From a virus: 31,090 nucleotides of DNA. The position numbers and the translations under genes were made by a program. The notes under the pieces are model-generated. The model was not told where the DNA came from, did no database searches, and saw nothing but the letters and a program-made list of their open reading frames with translations. Shown one piece after another: positions 14,150-20,300 of this stretch (position 1 is its first letter; every line of letters starts with the position of its first letter). The stretch lies in the UHGV virus genome UHGV-0173755. One strand, 5' to 3'.

Positions 14150-14620
14150 TTATTGCCTCAGAGCGGCGCTGACGCGTTTTCTGATGGCATCAAAAATTTC
14201 CTGTTTCCCGGTCTTATCCAGCCCCATATAAGGACGCGCAGGAACGCCTGCCGGGCGGGGTGCCATATCGGGTGTACCGCCCCACTGATGGATGGCAGCA
14301 TAAATTTTTGGCGAACCAATCAGGGCATAATCCTGTCCATAATCGGTGGTAATGCTGCGTGCCAGATCGCCATGCAGGGTAAGGATACTGCCCGGAACAA
14401 AACCATGATCCTGACGCCATGCCTGCCACGAATCGCTCCACGCTTCCCAGCCTTTCCCTGTATCCGGGTCTGCCTGCCGTTCAAATGCCTGTTCCGTGGA
14501 TGACAGCAGCGCCGCAGCCATCACACGGGGAATGGCGCGGTCACGTGTAACGGTTCCCAGTTCATCCAGTGCAAGCTGAATACGTCGCACATCCACGGCA
14601 ACGTTCATATCAAGACTCAC
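14150..14620 (-). CDS. G: Virion morphogenesis protein (Mu gp31-like)
   Basis: 156 aa ORF; GTG start at 14618-14620 preceded by GGAGG SD; synteny. Confidence 0.7.
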   Translation of the reverse strand: MSLDMNVAVDVRRIQLALDELGTVTRDRAIPRVMAAALLSSTEQAFERQADPDTGKGWEAWSDSWQAWRQDHGFVPGSILTLHGDLARSITTDYGQDYALIGSPKIYAAIHQWGGTPDMAPRPAGVPARPYMGLDKTGKQEIFDAIRKRVSAALRQ

Positions 14621-15936
14621 TTATTCACCTCCACATGCCCCTCCAGTACGTCAATCATCCCGTCAGCAATCGCGGTTTCAAGCGACTGTGCAGATACGCG
14701 GCTGATACTGACCAGCACATCCGCACGGTCATTCTGCCTGCCGACTGTCTGTGATGTTCTGACCACAATCCGGGCCATGCCGTCACGGGTTGCCACAACA
14801 TACAGCAACTGGTGTTTCTCCCTGTCCCACAATACTGCCTGTGGTTCTGCCATCAGCGACGGCAGATGCTGTAAATCCTCCGGTTTCAGGGCGACATCAG
14901 CAGTGGTCGCCAGACTTTTCCCGTTCACCACAAGCAGACGGGCTGGCATATTCCCGGTGCGCTGATGTACGGCTTCAGCTACCGATTCCGTCATAAAACC
15001 CAGTGCCCGGATTTCATGACCGGTCTGACGTGATCCTGCCAGGCGTTTAAGCCAGAGGGAAAAAGCAAGCTGACGCTCCCGGCTGTTATTCAGCGTCTGA
15101 ACAACCTGCTCACGCAACTGCGCGTCGTGAATTTCCACCAGTTTTCGTATCAGTGCCTGATCCGTACCAAATGCCGCCGAACCGGGGTTATATGACCAGC
15201 CCACATCCGGCGTCATTTTTACCCGACCGTTGTCAAACGTGGTTGACGATGTGCGGAAAATCTCGCCGGTGCTTTCATCCGTACCGGCATCCACTTCGCG
15301 GGTATTCATGAATGACGCACCATAACTGATCTGTAACCCCAGCTCTTTCATGCGGGCCGCAGACAGCGCCCGGACGCGACAGCGGCAGTTCCAGCCATTG
15401 GGCGGGTAATGCGTCTGCCAGAAAATGTCGTCATACCTGAAAACCATATTGTGCAGCCGCGCATGTTCCGGGCGTGTTCTGCCATCCATAACGGCAACGT
15501 ACTGCCAGTACGGGTACAAATCGGCGGTATTCATCATCTGCGCATAACGTCCTGCCCCATACGCCGTACGGGTATTGACGTTATAAATGGTTGCCAGACG
15601 ACGCGGACTGCCCAGCTCGATTACCTTTGCGTTTCCGTCTGCATCCACGATGATTTGTTTTCCCCACCATCCGAGTTTTTGCAGCCGGGGGGCCAGTGTG
15701 CGGGTAAATTCCTCACGGGTGATGCCTTCACTGACAGCCCGCTCCACTTCCTCACGGATTGTGGTCAGTACATCCATCCGGGTGGCTTTGGCAACGGTAA
15801 AGGCGCGGGCGTGCGCGTCTGCCAGTTGTTCGTACCAGTTCCAGGTGATGTTGTAGCCTTTGGCGTGGAAATACGCGACAGCCTCCTTTGGCGGGAGGCG
15901 TGCGGCATACGCCAGATCAATGGTCTGCTGCGGCAT
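14617..15936 (-). CDS. F: Head morphogenesis protein (Mu F / SPP1 gp7-like)
   Basis: ORF track 451 aa from GTG at 15972; ATG at 15934-15936 with GGGGG SD is the more likely start; synteny after portal. Confidence 0.8.
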   Translation of the reverse strand: MPQQTIDLAYAARLPPKEAVAYFHAKGYNITWNWYEQLADAHARAFTVAKATRMDVLTTIREEVERAVSEGITREEFTRTLAPRLQKLGWWGKQIIVDADGNAKVIELGSPRRLATIYNVNTRTAYGAGRYAQMMNTADLYPYWQYVAVMDGRTRPEHARLHNMVFRYDDIFWQTHYPPNGWNCRCRVRALSAARMKELGLQISYGASFMNTREVDAGTDESTGEIFRTSSTTFDNGRVKMTPDVGWSYNPGSAAFGTDQALIRKLVEIHDAQLREQVVQTLNNSRERQLAFSLWLKRLAGSRQTGHEIRALGFMTESVAEAVHQRTGNMPARLLVVNGKSLATTADVALKPEDLQHLPSLMAEPQAVLWDREKHQLLYVVATRDGMARIVVRTSQTVGRQNDRADVLVSISRVSAQSLETAIADGMIDVLEGHVEVNK

Positions 15937-17455
15937 CCAGACGCCCCCATATATCGGCAACAAAAATGGCACGGGTCAGCATGTCGATAAGTTCTGCATC
16001 ATCCATCTGCGGATATAATGAAGCGGCTTTGTTCATGGCGGCTTCCGGCCCATCTTTCAGCACAGAAAAAATGACGGGTTTCAGCAGGGGATCAACCGAA
16101 CGCTGCCAGTCTTCCGGTGAGAGGCCCATCCGGTCGATATCATCCTCCTGCGGGATATCTTCAGCGGATAATGCGGCCTCTTTCTGCGGACCGTTATCCA
16201 TGACGACCGGTTGAGCAGTAAACACGGCTTCATCACCGACCGGCTGTGGAATATGGAGTTTTTCCTGTATCCAGGAGACCGGAATACGCATTCCCGCCGC
16301 CAGTTTCGGAATGGCGTCAGACAGTGCCGTAATATCACCCGCTTCACTGGTATCAAACACAATGCCCGGCAGGCGGTTAATATCAATGGTGCTGTCACTG
16401 TTCAGTGCCAGCAGGGGATAAATCAGGTCACGGTTAATACTGCGGGCAAGCTGGCCCACATCCGCGTTACGGATTTCCCGGCGAACCTCATCATGCACTT
16501 CACCCAGCGACCGTGCACCTTTATCGCCAGCCTCTGTGGTCAGGGTGCCGCCCAGAATGGCTTTTGAAATCGCTTTTTCTGCCCAGCCAATCATCGCCAT
16601 AAAGGGGTCTGACTGACCATCTGCGGCGCTCTGAAAATCCAGCGTCATCCCCATCGGAATAATGCCACCGGCACGTCGCCCGATATCCATCACGGCCTGC
16701 ATCAGCGTGGCTTTCTCACGGTTCGTGGAGCCGGTCGGATATTTACCGACGCGCATGGGAAGTCCGTAAATTTCCAGAAACTCTGCAAAATCACGCACGG
16801 AATAGTTTTTAAAAATAAAAGGCCAGATAAGCGTGCGCACAAGGCCATTGGTGCCAACGTACCCGGTGCGGGATTTGGCCCGGTGCATAAACCAGCCGAA
16901 CGGTTGCAGCTCCAGCCCGTGATAAGACGTATCACGCAGACGTAATTCGTTCAGATTATCGGGGTTCGCGCAGAACAGCGCCGGATCGCGATGATGCAGC
17001 GCCACCGGCACGCGCATTTTGCCCAGCCAGCCCCATTCAATCTCCTGCATGGAATAACCCTTGAGAATGGCATCACCGGCATCAAACAGGGCATCTTCAA
17101 ACCACGCCGCATCATGCAGATATTCATTCAGCATGTCGGCGTCTTTTTTCTCCTGTGCGCTGGCATCACGTGCCGGAGCGATGCGCCATTCCAGCGCCTG
17201 AATGGCAAGGCGGCGCTTGCTCAGTTCGGAAAAAAGGTGGGTGTCCTTTTCTTCCATATCAAAGGCCAGGTCAGCCTGTGCGGTCAGATCACCGCGTTCG
17301 GCATCACGCAGCATCTGCGCGGCCCGGTTCGGCGTCACACCACTGGAAGGATGCTCCTGCGTACGCTTCATGACCATTGCCAGCTCATCGCTGCGGGTCT
17401 GCATTTCATCGTCAAAATCAAACGGCTGCCCGGAAATATCCAGAATACGGCCCAT
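15917..17455 (-). CDS. H: Portal protein
   Basis: 512 aa ORF, ATG 17453-17455 overlapping terminase stop; size/position. Confidence 0.85.
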   Translation of the reverse strand: MGRILDISGQPFDFDDEMQTRSDELAMVMKRTQEHPSSGVTPNRAAQMLRDAERGDLTAQADLAFDMEEKDTHLFSELSKRRLAIQALEWRIAPARDASAQEKKDADMLNEYLHDAAWFEDALFDAGDAILKGYSMQEIEWGWLGKMRVPVALHHRDPALFCANPDNLNELRLRDTSYHGLELQPFGWFMHRAKSRTGYVGTNGLVRTLIWPFIFKNYSVRDFAEFLEIYGLPMRVGKYPTGSTNREKATLMQAVMDIGRRAGGIIPMGMTLDFQSAADGQSDPFMAMIGWAEKAISKAILGGTLTTEAGDKGARSLGEVHDEVRREIRNADVGQLARSINRDLIYPLLALNSDSTIDINRLPGIVFDTSEAGDITALSDAIPKLAAGMRIPVSWIQEKLHIPQPVGDEAVFTAQPVVMDNGPQKEAALSAEDIPQEDDIDRMGLSPEDWQRSVDPLLKPVIFSVLKDGPEAAMNKAASLYPQMDDAELIDMLTRAIFVADIWGRLDAAADH

Positions 17456-19110
17456 TACCAGCCCCCTCGTTCAAACTGGTGATAATCATCAAAATCATCG
17501 TTATCAACATCATCACCACGGTGGCGTGGTGGCAGCGCCTGTATGCTGTCCTCGTCGATAACAAAACCATTCATATAAGACGCCCTGACAGCCATACAGA
17601 GCGCCACGGCAAAGTCGCCATGTCGTCGGCCTTTACCACCTTCATCTTTTGTGCGCCCCTTATCAATCTGCGGAATACCTTTGTCCACCTTGATGTGGAG
17701 CAGGTCATCAAGAGTGGTCTGGTGCCGGGCAATCGTGATGTTCTGCGCTTCAAACTCGCCTTTCAGTTTTGGCATCCACTCCTGATACCAGGATGCGGTC
17801 AGATTCACACAGTCGATCATCTCCGGGCCATAAATCAGACGGGCGGCTTCTGCCAGATAACCGCCGTTACCGGTGGCATCAAATGCAGCGCCGGTAAAAC
17901 GGGGCAAACGGGACAGAATGAATAAAAGGATTTGTCGCTGCTGGTCATAGGTCACATTACGCAGCTCCACGCGGAAACATTCGCGTTTGCGTAAGTCAGG
18001 AGTGATGGCAAGCGGCACAAACACCGTCAGGTCGCCACGGCGTGCAAAGTCTTCGCCCAGTACGTGTTTATTGAGCGGCGACAGCGCATCGAGCAACGGG
18101 AGCAGCTCCTGTTCACACCAGTCCTGAACGATGCCGTGGCGCATTTGTGGTGTCAGCGATTCAAAATCGTCCGGGGCTTCAAAACGCAGAATCGGGATAT
18201 CCCGCGCTGGCGTCATGGCGGCTTCAATCAGCACGCGTGACAGATAAGCGCCCCCGGATTTTTTAGGAATGCAGCCGTATTCCTCGTCGGCACTCTCTTT
18301 ATTCGGCGCATTCCGGTACAGGCCATCACGCCAGGCTTTTTCCGCTTCCGGCGACCACGGCTGATTCGTGACGTAACAGATACGTCGGTACAACCCGTCA
18401 GCGATGGCATCATCCAGCGTGATACGGTGAACGCTGTAATCCTTGCGCCCCTCGCGCGCATCCTGAATGTACTGGTTAAACAGGTTATCGACGCCGTTAT
18501 GTGTCGATATGATCCGCACGCGGGCACCCCACATGGTGAGCGCAAAGGCCGCTTTCAGGAGTTCGTCCAGGGCTTCATGAAATGCCGCCTCATCAATCAC
18601 CACGTCCCCCTGCAAACCACGCAGGTTAGACGGACGGCTTGACAGCGCCTGCACCTTAAATCCGCTGTTAGGGAAACGGATCATATAAGTGAGGATTTCT
18701 TCTTTTTTGTCGCTGTCCCAGAAGGTCTGCTCCCAGACGTCAGCCTTTGCCAGTTGGTTAAAGGCACGGGCAAACAGGGCACAGGCGGCGATGTATTCCA
18801 GCGCCATTTCCTGACGGGAACCCACATAAAAGACGTTGCGACCACCGCGACGCTTCGGCTTTGCGGCCGTCATGACATTGCGGCCCGCTTCGGCCCATGT
18901 CAGACCGGTACGACGGGATTTTTCAGCGATGCAAATCTGGCTTTCATCCTCAAACCAGCGCCGCTGATAGCCCAGAAAAACCGGTTCATTGCGGGGCTGT
19001 GCTTCCCCGATATCGGTCACGATATTCACGCCGAGCAGTTCGGCTTCCTCACGCAGGTTGATTTTGCGGGGCGCATGAAGGACTTTAAGTTTGCTTTCTC
19101 TGGTGCTCAC
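17455..19110 (-). CDS. Terminase large subunit (Mu gp28-like)
   Basis: 551 aa ORF; only in-frame start is GTG at 19108-19110 with no obvious SD; size and position before portal. Confidence 0.85.
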   Translation of the reverse strand: MSTRESKLKVLHAPRKINLREEAELLGVNIVTDIGEAQPRNEPVFLGYQRRWFEDESQICIAEKSRRTGLTWAEAGRNVMTAAKPKRRGGRNVFYVGSRQEMALEYIAACALFARAFNQLAKADVWEQTFWDSDKKEEILTYMIRFPNSGFKVQALSSRPSNLRGLQGDVVIDEAAFHEALDELLKAAFALTMWGARVRIISTHNGVDNLFNQYIQDAREGRKDYSVHRITLDDAIADGLYRRICYVTNQPWSPEAEKAWRDGLYRNAPNKESADEEYGCIPKKSGGAYLSRVLIEAAMTPARDIPILRFEAPDDFESLTPQMRHGIVQDWCEQELLPLLDALSPLNKHVLGEDFARRGDLTVFVPLAITPDLRKRECFRVELRNVTYDQQRQILLFILSRLPRFTGAAFDATGNGGYLAEAARLIYGPEMIDCVNLTASWYQEWMPKLKGEFEAQNITIARHQTTLDDLLHIKVDKGIPQIDKGRTKDEGGKGRRHGDFAVALCMAVRASYMNGFVIDEDSIQALPPRHRGDDVDNDDFDDYHQFERGGW

Positions 19111-19166
19111 GGGTGAAAAATCCGGTATAAATTTCCAGGCATTAATCAGTAAAAAAAGAGGTTGTT

Positions 19167-19361
19167 ATGAAAGAAAAACTGACCATTGATCAAAAAATCG
19201 AAATTGCCCGGATAGCCGTGCAAATGTTTGAATCCACCCGGGCAAAAGGCGTTTCACTTGAGATCTCCTGTTCAGGAAAAGCATCAGAGGAAGAAAACAC
19301 ATTTAATGCTTTCTACAAAATTGTTGAAAAAATCGTTATCGGTGAACCTGAGAATAACTGA
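19167..19361 (+). CDS. Small AT-rich hypothetical protein on the opposite strand (64 aa)
   Basis: ATG 19167 with AAGAGG SD 7 nt upstream; TATAAA -10-like at 19126-19131; ~39% GC by eye; 3' end overlaps convergent ORF by 26 nt. Confidence 0.4.
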   Translation: MKEKLTIDQKIEIARIAVQMFESTRAKGVSLEISCSGKASEEENTFNAFYKIVEKIVIGEPENN

Positions 19362-19533
19362 TCACCTGGCCCGCTGTAGCCGGGCCATCCACCAGTTGCA
19401 TAACCAGATACAGGGCCTCGGCCATAATTCGTGGATGGACTTCCGGATCCTCATCAATCTGTTTTTTCACAACGGGCCACAGTGCCATTGCCAGTTCTGT
19501 TGAGGTCTTGTATTTAGTTTTTTCATCCGCCAT
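19336..19533 (-). CDS. Small hypothetical protein (about 65 aa, acidic)
   Basis: ATG at 19531-19533 with GAGG SD overlapping upstream TGA stop (translational coupling); ORF track 67 aa from ATG 19539. Confidence 0.4.
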   Translation of the reverse strand: MADEKTKYKTSTELAMALWPVVKKQIDEDPEVHPRIMAEALYLVMQLVDGPATAGQVISYSQVHR

Positions 19534-19543
19534 TTTCATTTCC

Positions 19544-19714
19544 TCAGGACAAAGTCCTTAGTTGTTTTATGGTCGTATGCCATGAATTGCCTGAAGCCAT
19601 AGCCTGAACAAGCACATCCCGAATCTGGTGTATCAACCGGACATCAGACAATGTTGCAATCCTGAAGGCTTTTTTATGGGCACTGATTAGCTGTGCTTTG
19701 TAATCATTTTTCAT
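19544..19714 (-). CDS. Small hypothetical protein (56 aa, basic)
   Basis: Internal ATG at 19712-19714 preceded by AGGAG SD 7 nt upstream, 10 nt after gp27-like stop; ORF track's 121-aa version overlaps gp27 out of frame. Confidence 0.45.
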   Translation of the reverse strand: MKNDYKAQLISAHKKAFRIATLSDVRLIHQIRDVLVQAMASGNSWHTTIKQLRTLS

Positions 19715-19724
19715 AACGTAACTC

Positions 19725-20300
19725 CTACGCTTTCCCCAGCAGTACATCACGGATGCGCTGCTCCAGTTCTTCGCTGATGCCATCCTGCCCGCGCAGTTCT
19801 TCACTGACGGCGTTTGCCGCTTCTTCTGCGAATGCCTGGCGGATTTCTTTCTCGCGCCGGTGGCTGGACATTGCTGTGGATTCCAGACGCTGTGCCGCCA
19901 GCATGGCATTTTTCAGCAGGTCAATATCCACGTCAGATTCCGGGTTTTCGATTTGCCGCATCATGGCCTTAAAAAGCTGGCTGCGGGCCATTTCCAGAAT
20001 CAGCTTTGTGGTTTCGCCCATTGGCTTGTCGCCAAGCTCTGCGGTCAGTGCTGACGTCATTTCACGCATCTGTCGCAGGTTATGGCCTACCTGCTCGACG
20101 TTCGTCGCGTAACGGTTCAGACCGGAACGGGAGAGTTTCATCTCATCCGGCAGGCCAGCGTCTTCAATCAGTGCGTTAATTTCTTCAAGAATACGGGCCT
20201 GTGGGATCGCCTTATCACGCAGCATTTCATGCAGCGTTTTACGTACGTTTTCCGGCAGTAAATCCACTTTTGAAGCCCGTCCCCGTGTTTTCCTGTCCAT
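19725..20300 (-). CDS. Mu gp27-like protein (putative small terminase/DNA-packaging protein)
   Basis: ORF track 196 aa; ATG at 20298-20300 preceded by AGGAGG SD is the likely start; synteny upstream of large terminase. Confidence 0.65.
   Translation of the reverse strand: MDRKTRGRASKVDLLPENVRKTLHEMLRDKAIPQARILEEINALIEDAGLPDEMKLSRSGLNRYATNVEQVGHNLRQMREMTSALTAELGDKPMGETTKLILEMARSQLFKAMMRQIENPESDVDIDLLKNAMLAAQRLESTAMSSHRREKEIRQAFAEEAANAVSEELRGQDGISEELEQRIRDVLLGKA

Follow-up and report, generated by a model that had tools for sequence, protein, structure and literature searches.

RESULTS

Three small genes separate the terminase genes of a Mu-like prophage

The DNA that we analyzed, 31,090 nucleotides (nt) of UHGV virus genome UHGV-0173755 (here called the window), is from a Mu-like prophage whose late operon lies on the minus strand, with the lysis genes, gp25 to gp27, gp28 (large terminase, TerL), gp29 (portal), and gp30 (MuF) all present. 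Between the stop codon of gp27, which encodes the small terminase (TerS) (TAG, 19727-19725), and the start codon of gp28 (GTG, 19110) is an insert of ~613 bp (window 19111-19724), which is the subject of this study. The insert is AT-rich, with a GC content of 0.37 to 0.49 compared with ~0.55 in the flanks, and contains three genes: two open reading frames (ORFs) on the late strand, ORF-A and ORF-B, and one on the opposite strand, ORF-C (Table 1). Any existing annotation of these ORFs reads only “hypothetical protein,” in line with the expectation in an initial annotation, made from the sequence of the window, that they would prove to be unannotated.

That annotation had also taken gp27 to run straight to gp28 in Mu. 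Comparison with the reference genomes of Mu and D108 confirmed this: in both phages gp27 abuts gp28, and the match to our query was restricted to the flanks, or 22% of its length. The insert is likewise absent from SfMu. The interval is therefore not a stretch of Mu sequence with genes of known function, and its moron-like appearance, with extra DNA of deviant GC content between genes that are adjacent in Mu, was borne out. The gp27 protein of the window is 100% identical to that of Mu.

The two small late-strand ORFs are present with the sizes, charges, and Shine-Dalgarno (SD) sequences first described for them. ORF-A has a net charge of about +6 by residue count; ORF-B has a net charge of about -2 and would encode 67 amino acids (aa) if translation began at the ATG at 19539. 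The ~225 bp between ORF-B and gp28 had been described as lacking minus-strand coding. This part of the description stands, as we found no conserved ORF on the minus strand there, but the stretch is not noncoding because its plus strand carries ORF-C. An Rfam search of the interval gave no match, and a repeat search returned nothing informative.

Table 1. Coordinates of the genes and signals in and around the gp27/gp28 insert
Feature	Position in window	Strand	Basis or remark
ORF-C, 64 aa	19167..19361	+	Antisense to late operon; SD AGAGG at 19157-19161
ORF-B, 65 aa, slightly acidic	19336..19533	-	Late strand; SD GAGGA overlaps ORF-A stop
Convergent 3' overlap of ORF-B and ORF-C, 26 nt	19336..19361	.	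Sequence
SD of ORF-C, AGAGG	19157..19161	+	Read from sequence; 5 nt before ATG
-10-like element TATAAA, putative ORF-C promoter	19126..19131	+	15 nt from gp28 start codon
ORF-A, 56 aa, basic	19544..19714	-	Late strand; SD AGGAG at 19726-19722 overlaps gp27 stop
gp30/MuF segment resembled by ORF-A (residues 45-93 of the 451-aa ORF 14617-15972)	15694..15840	-	hhalign
gp27, Mu-type small terminase	19725..20300	-	PF11985/DUF3486, Pfam E 1.3e-52; left flank
gp28, large terminase	17455..19110	-	Pfam Terminase_6N, E 3e-6; right flank

ORF-C and ORF-B are under purifying selection

The frame of ORF-C is the sole one of the six reading frames that is free of stop codons in all of the loci examined (15/15). 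This observation matters because a frame on the opposite strand shares its third codon positions with ORF-C. Late-strand ORFs of 36 to 75 aa lie opposite ORF-C in the window and in the Mixta and Apirhabdus prophages (loci L005 and L008), and we rejected them as genes because every frame other than that of ORF-C contains stops in every locus.

Between ORF-C and its homologs in L005 and L008, the nonsynonymous substitution rate (dN) was 0.24 to 0.26 and the synonymous rate (dS) was saturated; comparison of the L005 and L008 genes with each other gave a dN/dS of 0.20. Over the 17 N-terminal codons, the proportion of nonsynonymous differences (pN) was 0.00 to 0.09 and that of synonymous differences (pS) was 0.29 to 0.98. 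A pN near zero with synonymous sites largely saturated indicates constraint at the protein level. The N terminus is invariant in the family, with the sequence MKEKLTIDQK(I/L)xIA, the middle is hypervariable in both sequence and length, and the C terminus is semiconserved (LFxxFYxxVxKxVTDEPE). These results demonstrate that ORF-C is under purifying selection.

ORF-C is rare. Its homologs formed 5 clusters among 5.8 billion proteins, and a profile search yielded 11 hits among 1.84 billion representatives. Positions 21 to 46 of the profile also matched a 938-aa representative, P0016, in nine short stretches; this match is probably an artefact of composition or repeats. A profile scan of genome contigs with the ORF-C alignment confirmed one locus, with the confirmation relying on the first sequence. 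The match of ORF-C in PHROGs was limited to its first 19 residues. An AlphaFold2 model predicted a helix-loop-helix with a predicted local distance difference test (pLDDT) score of 71.

For ORF-B, PHROGs gave a full-length match to phrog_21398 (E 5.9e-39, profile positions 1-64 of 64). No function is assigned to phrog_21398, so membership in it gives no mechanism. The dN/dS of ORF-B was 0.12 to 0.38 in comparisons with homologs from Yersinia phage Tongde and from Mixta and Apirhabdus prophages. ORF-B is thus conserved and under purifying selection. The homolog search recovered 8 clusters, and the AlphaFold2 model is a simple bundle of three helices (pLDDT 72.6).

ORF-C occurs only with a convergent ORF-B gene

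To place these genes among related prophages, we recovered 80 IMG/VR loci with gp27 and separately surveyed 5,426 complete Escherichia coli genomes. An insert was present at the gp27/gp28 junction in about 13 of the 80 IMG/VR loci and in none of the others. A gp27 of this type was found in 44 of the 5,426 E. coli genomes and the full cassette of the window in only one, that of strain RM8082 (L003 5010-5524). The lysozyme gene of the RM8082 prophage is frameshifted, and this prophage may be defective.

The interval is variable among Mu-like prophages, and the inserts are nested or alternative. ORF-A with a remnant of ORF-B is found in Z0117-type prophages and in nine complete E. coli genomes. 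ORF-A and ORF-B occur together in phage Tongde and L046. All three genes are present in the window, in E. coli RM8082, and in prophages of Mixta, Apirhabdus, Salmonella, Citrobacter, and Erwinia. ORF-B and ORF-C occur without ORF-A in L110, L111, and E. coli SE11, where ORF-B directly follows gp27. In L017, L036, and L037, ORF-A is accompanied by an unrelated 162-aa antisense ORF that we call D.

A convergent ORF-B gene was present at all 15 loci with ORF-C. ORF-C was never found without an ORF-B gene, and ORF-B was found without ORF-C in Tongde and L046. Decayed copies of ORF-B were seen only where ORF-C is absent. The pairing of basic ORF-A with acidic ORF-B proposed in the initial annotation was not upheld, as the conserved pair is convergent ORF-B and ORF-C, and ORF-A is separable from both.

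Two loci are of note in this respect. L010, from Apirhabdus apintestini (CP138906.1), is the only one in which ORF-B carries a 1-nt deletion and ORF-C is intact. Many of its neighboring phage genes, including those for TerL, the portal, and gp27, are uncalled, and the locus is full of disrupted genes; it is either a degraded prophage that has kept ORF-C or an error-prone assembly. In Tongde (L001), which lacks ORF-C, the antisense of the 3' end of ORF-B reads TGESRNN, resembling by eye the C-terminal IGEPENN of ORF-C. This resemblance suggests that ORF-C was deleted from an ancestor with all three genes rather than added later.

The alternative antisense gene D (MSPKAIKLLE...) was found in the interval 3074-3691 of L017, and by eye its L017 and L036 versions are about 78% identical. 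Its partner is a longer late ORF, similar to ORF-A, which shares ~155 nt with the 3' end of D. D was absent from the 5,426 complete E. coli genomes.

A further arrangement is found in L112 (2921-3463; Logan SRR23946976), where a B-like/C-like pair accompanies a TerS of the DUF1804 type. This locus has two more late-strand genes before TerL, of 69 aa and 109 aa, the latter of which matches PF20137 (DUF6527, “BubE”).

The overlap of the pair and the putative expression signals of ORF-C are conserved

The 26-nt overlap between ORF-B and ORF-C was also found in L005, L008, L098, L107, L109, L111, L112, L117, and L118. It is longer in L110 (29 nt) and shorter in L106 and SE11 (11 nt). The SD sequence of ORF-C, AGAGG, is kept in 10 of 12 aligned upstream regions. 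Further upstream, a -10-like or extended -10 element (TGnTAnnnT, TATAAA, or CATAAT) is located at -39 to -44 from the ORF-C start codon in 13 of 13 loci, which represent about five sequence groups. Based on this element, ORF-C may be expressed in the lysogen from a promoter of its own. On the late strand, we detected no terminator-like site between 18900 and 19900, consistent with transcription of ORF-A and ORF-B as part of the late message.

The plus strand has a single terminator-like hairpin (AGGAC-AAA-GTCCT with a T-rich tail after it), which is weak and is located at 19546-19558, ~185 nt past the ORF-C stop codon. Its late-strand counterpart is the ORF-A/ORF-B junction with the SD sequence of ORF-B, and the hairpin is not conserved in Mixta-type cassettes.

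ORF-A resembles an N-terminal segment of MuF

When the ORF-A family profile was compared by hhalign with the 82 minus-strand ORFs of the window, it aligned to residues 45-93 of gp30/MuF with a probability of 94.4% (E 9e-8). The runner-up scored no more than 3.3%, and the portal and tape measure proteins scored 1.1% and 0.15%, respectively. The profiles of ORF-B and ORF-C showed no paralog in the same set, so that only ORF-A matched, to MuF. The ORF-A profile also aligned to residues 34-85 of the F-like protein of the Mu-like Pseudomonas aeruginosa phage JBD26, with a probability of 59%, and ORF-A had a weak PHROGs match to phrog_220, “minor head protein.”

The Pfam MuF/SPP1 gp7 family domain (PF04233) spans residues 71-200 of gp30. 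ORF-A therefore matches a stretch that begins immediately upstream of this domain and takes in roughly its first 22 residues. The likeness to this family consists of the profile alignments to gp30 and the JBD26 protein; ORF-A differs from it in being only 56 aa long and in having no Pfam match of its own, even to PF04233 at E<=10. ORF-A is 24% identical to gp30, which points to an old paralog rather than a recent duplication. Together, these comparisons suggest that ORF-A is a miniature paralog of the N-terminal segment of MuF.

The ORF-A family comprises 27 clusters in the Enterobacterales. Of the three genes, ORF-A is the fastest evolving, with 24 to 31% identity between clades and a dN/dS of 0.2 to 0.76. 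Its frame, length, and SD sequence are retained despite this fast divergence.

Alleles of the cassette are exchanged between prophages

Across 11 prophages, the mean identity was 89% for the gp27 and gp28 flanks, 58% for ORF-B, and 45% for ORF-C. The difference was most evident between L110 and L106, whose flanks are 100% identical and whose ORF-B and ORF-C are only 70% and 43% identical, with high synonymous divergence. Identical flanks around diverged ORF-B and ORF-C genes indicate that cassette alleles have been swapped by recombination. The distances of ORF-B and ORF-C correlated with each other (Spearman 0.46) and less so with those of the flanks (0.02 to 0.29). Together with the absence of the insert from Mu, D108, SfMu, and most of the 80 IMG/VR relatives, these results show that the cassette is accessory, horizontally exchanged, and dispensable for Mu-type phages.

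DISCUSSION

The layout of the cassette resembles that of the Tab/anti-Tab system of phage JBD26

The initial annotation had offered three functions for the late-strand ORFs: an accessory packaging factor, a toxin-antitoxin-like pair, or an anti-defense moron. These suggestions are generic, and none is demonstrated. The arrangement of ORF-B and ORF-C points to a more specific comparison, with a published prophage defense and self-antidote that comes near these suggestions without being among them. In phage JBD26, the tab gene lies between the genes for TerS and TerL, opposite the late operon, and has its own promoter; Tab is expressed from the prophage and acts through the tape measure protein to stop invading phages from assembling their tails (Patel et al. 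2024, Nat Commun; PMC10884400). The gene for its antidote, atab, immediately follows the TerS gene on the late strand, and its product binds Tab and shields the lytic cycle of the prophage itself (PMC10884400). Homologs of Tab always occur with atab, the two genes can be deleted together, and Tab homologs are, according to the authors, confined to close relatives of JBD26 (PMC10884400). In the JBD26 record, tab (83 aa, gp31) and atab (83 aa, gp30) converge with a 3' overlap of 47 nt.

The ORF-B/ORF-C pair occupies the same slot, flanked by gp27 (PF11985) and gp28 (Terminase_6N) as tab and atab are by the TerS and TerL genes. As in JBD26, an antisense gene facing the late operon encodes a small protein in which no domain is known (ORF-C), a small late-strand partner is located downstream of TerS (ORF-B, present at all 15 ORF-C loci), the two genes converge in a 3' overlap (26 nt compared with 47 nt), and the pair is dispensable for the phage. 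The likeness extends to L112, where a B-like/C-like pair fills the slot next to a DUF1804 TerS, the type found in JBD26. The systems differ in the size of their proteins (64 to 65 aa for ORF-B and ORF-C versus 83 aa), in their hosts (Enterobacterales versus Pseudomonas), and in the presence here of a third gene, ORF-A, the putative paralog of the MuF N terminus. Moreover, the target of Tab is the tape measure protein, and for ORF-B and ORF-C an activity, a target, and mutual binding are predictions. The pair is best read as a functional analog of anti-Tab and Tab and not as a demonstrable homolog.

The cassette can also be compared with phage morons, a concept of Juhala and Hendrix (as described in PMC4378225 and PMC10884400). 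Like morons, it consists of extra DNA of lower GC content between genes that are adjacent in relatives, and ORF-C is oriented for autonomous expression, with an SD sequence and a -10-like element. It differs from morons in that there is no clear terminator and ORF-C ends inside ORF-B, in that two of its three genes are integrated into the late operon, and in that many diverged alleles are swapped between prophages.

A proposed prophage defense with a late antidote

We propose that the cassette is a prophage defense and antidote module analogous to Tab/anti-Tab, a reading to which we assign a probability of about 0.35. ORF-C, the candidate prophage-expressed effector, would have a weak promoter of its own, governed mainly by the -10 element and reading counter to the late operon, and could therefore be made in the lysogen. 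Its product, modeled as a small helical hairpin with an invariant N terminus and a hypervariable middle, would act on related phages that enter the cell and stop them late, at virion assembly or at packaging. The candidate for its late-expressed partner or antidote is ORF-B. In this proposal ORF-B is cotranscribed with the terminase genes, so its synthesis would be confined to the late phase of the prophage itself, when it would bind and neutralize ORF-C. The separable late gene ORF-A would mimic the N-terminal segment of MuF and may be a decoy or competitor for a binder of that segment.

We infer the expression of ORF-C in the lysogen, the binding of ORF-B to ORF-C, and the anti-phage activity and target of ORF-C from the organization and evolution of the genes. 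That ORF-C needs ORF-B, that ORF-B can stand alone, and that ORF-B decays only after ORF-C is lost fit a defense with an antidote. The dispensability of the cassette, the swapping of its alleles, the hypervariability, and the SD sequence and promoter-like element of ORF-C fit it as well. The greater divergence of ORF-B and ORF-C than of their flanks has the character of an arms race.

Several observations weigh against this proposal. The shared 3' overlap shows that the ORF-B/ORF-C pairs have a common ancestry, so their co-occurrence may be inherited rather than functional, and the asymmetry in the loss of the two genes comes from only about three independent loss events. Because dS is saturated, positive selection on the middle of ORF-C is not demonstrable. 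A scan for canonical two-hexamer sigma-70 promoters gave no hits and ORF-C has no good -35 element, so an autonomous promoter can only be inferred. Searches of Pfam, NCBIfam, and PADLOC with ORF-A, ORF-B, ORF-C, and the alternative cargo D returned nothing significant, and none of the three cassette proteins matched a family of known function in the libraries searched. Fold searches likewise returned nothing significant (Foldseek against BFVD with the ORF-B and ORF-C models, no match at E<0.5), small helical models such as these being uninformative for fold search. Comparison by hhalign revealed no sequence homology to the JBD26 system, with probabilities of 0.08% for ORF-C and Tab, 0.18% for ORF-B and anti-Tab, and 0.14% for ORF-A and anti-Tab. 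Finally, any role of ORF-A in the scheme is speculative. A BLASTP comparison of anti-Tab with the MuF-like protein of JBD26 was negative.

Other functions for the cassette

Alternatively, ORF-A and ORF-B might be late proteins with an accessory role in adjusting head assembly or DNA packaging, for example with ORF-A modulating an interaction between MuF and a partner, and ORF-C might be an unrelated lysogenic-conversion moron. This explanation, which develops the accessory factor first suggested, is unlikely but the strongest of the alternatives. It would account for the position of ORF-A and ORF-B in the late operon, translationally coupled between packaging genes, and for the specific similarity of ORF-A to the MuF N-terminal segment. 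Intact ORF-A persists without ORF-B and ORF-C in the nine E. coli genomes, with a dN/dS of 0.2, and ORF-B is kept without ORF-C in Tongde. However, Mu and most of its relatives do without both proteins, which diverge far faster than true morphogenetic genes, and neither the conserved overlap nor the finding that ORF-C never occurs without ORF-B would be explained.

Less likely still is that ORF-A, ORF-B, or both act late against host immune systems able to detect proteins of the virion or the packaging machinery, perhaps as a decoy for a MuF sensor, with ORF-C as a regulator or a separate moron. ORF-A is the size expected of a mimic and copies a segment of a structural protein, and the cassette diversifies fast, is exchanged horizontally, and is dispensable in laboratory Mu, all of which would suit an anti-defense function. 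However, we know of no host system that senses MuF, the libraries searched contained no similar anti-defense family, and anti-defense genes are usually early rather than late.

We consider it improbable that ORF-B and ORF-C are a toxin-antitoxin or addiction pair that stabilizes the prophage. They are indeed two small co-occurring genes, one of which is never found without the other. However, they are convergent rather than organized in an operon, and ORF-B, if carried only on the late transcript, could not antagonize ORF-C in a lysogen. Neither protein shows membrane or nuclease features, no toxin-antitoxin or defense family was matched in Pfam, NCBIfam, or PADLOC, and L010 has a frameshifted ORF-B with an intact ORF-C.

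Just as improbable is a role for ORF-C at the level of RNA or transcription, in which convergent transcription would, in lysogens, lower the amount of leaky transcription that reads into the terminase gene. Only 15 nt separate the putative promoter from the gp28 start, and transcription of ORF-C would oppose the late operon, as this explanation requires. Against it, selection acts on the protein, with saturated synonymous sites and invariant N-terminal residues, the SD sequence and ATG of ORF-C are conserved, and Rfam gave no match.

Deleted and decayed variants such as the ORF-B remnant of Z0117-type prophages, together with the single full cassette among 5,426 E. coli genomes, might suggest functionless junk decaying after an old recombination, but this is very improbable and largely refuted by the selection analysis, given the purifying selection on ORF-B and ORF-C, the frames intact across Escherichia, Salmonella, Citrobacter, Mixta, Apirhabdus, and Erwinia, and the sole open frame of ORF-C at 15 of 15 loci.

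Implications of a defense and antidote module

To our knowledge, only a few cases of defense by blocking virion assembly are known. If the cassette is a defense and antidote module, it would be an enterobacterial counterpart of Tab/anti-Tab in the same slot and unrelated to it in sequence, and both the strategy and its genomic address would be general among transposable phages. A predictive rule for finding such systems would follow, namely to look between the TerS and TerL genes for a small late ORF and, converging with it, a small antisense ORF. The proposal would also provide a first functional handle on three families of small “hypothetical” proteins and on a miniprotein that mimics a head morphogenesis protein. 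Phage Mu is a natural target that lacks the cassette and is presumably sensitive, and the system is open to direct study in E. coli.

A wider proposal is more tentative, and we regard it as doubtful. The TerS-TerL junction of transposable phages might be a general slot for convergent pairs of an assembly blocker and a late antidote that arose more than once, with the enterobacterial ORF-B/ORF-C pair forming a second lineage that has no sequence relationship to Tab/anti-Tab. The hypervariable middle of ORF-C would then set target specificity, ORF-A would be a decoy of the MuF N terminus and thus a third layer of mimicry, and D would be a further member of the class.

Start signals of the large terminase gene

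The gp28 gene of the window begins at a GTG codon (19108-19110) without an SD sequence, as had been noted from the sequence. All close relatives use ATG at the same codon, also without an SD sequence. In Mu, gp28 is preceded by the SD sequence GAGAGGG, and the gp27 stop codon falls within the gp28 ribosome-binding site. Unlike in Mu, the SD sequence before the TerL gene is missing throughout the insert-bearing E. coli and Yersinia lineage.

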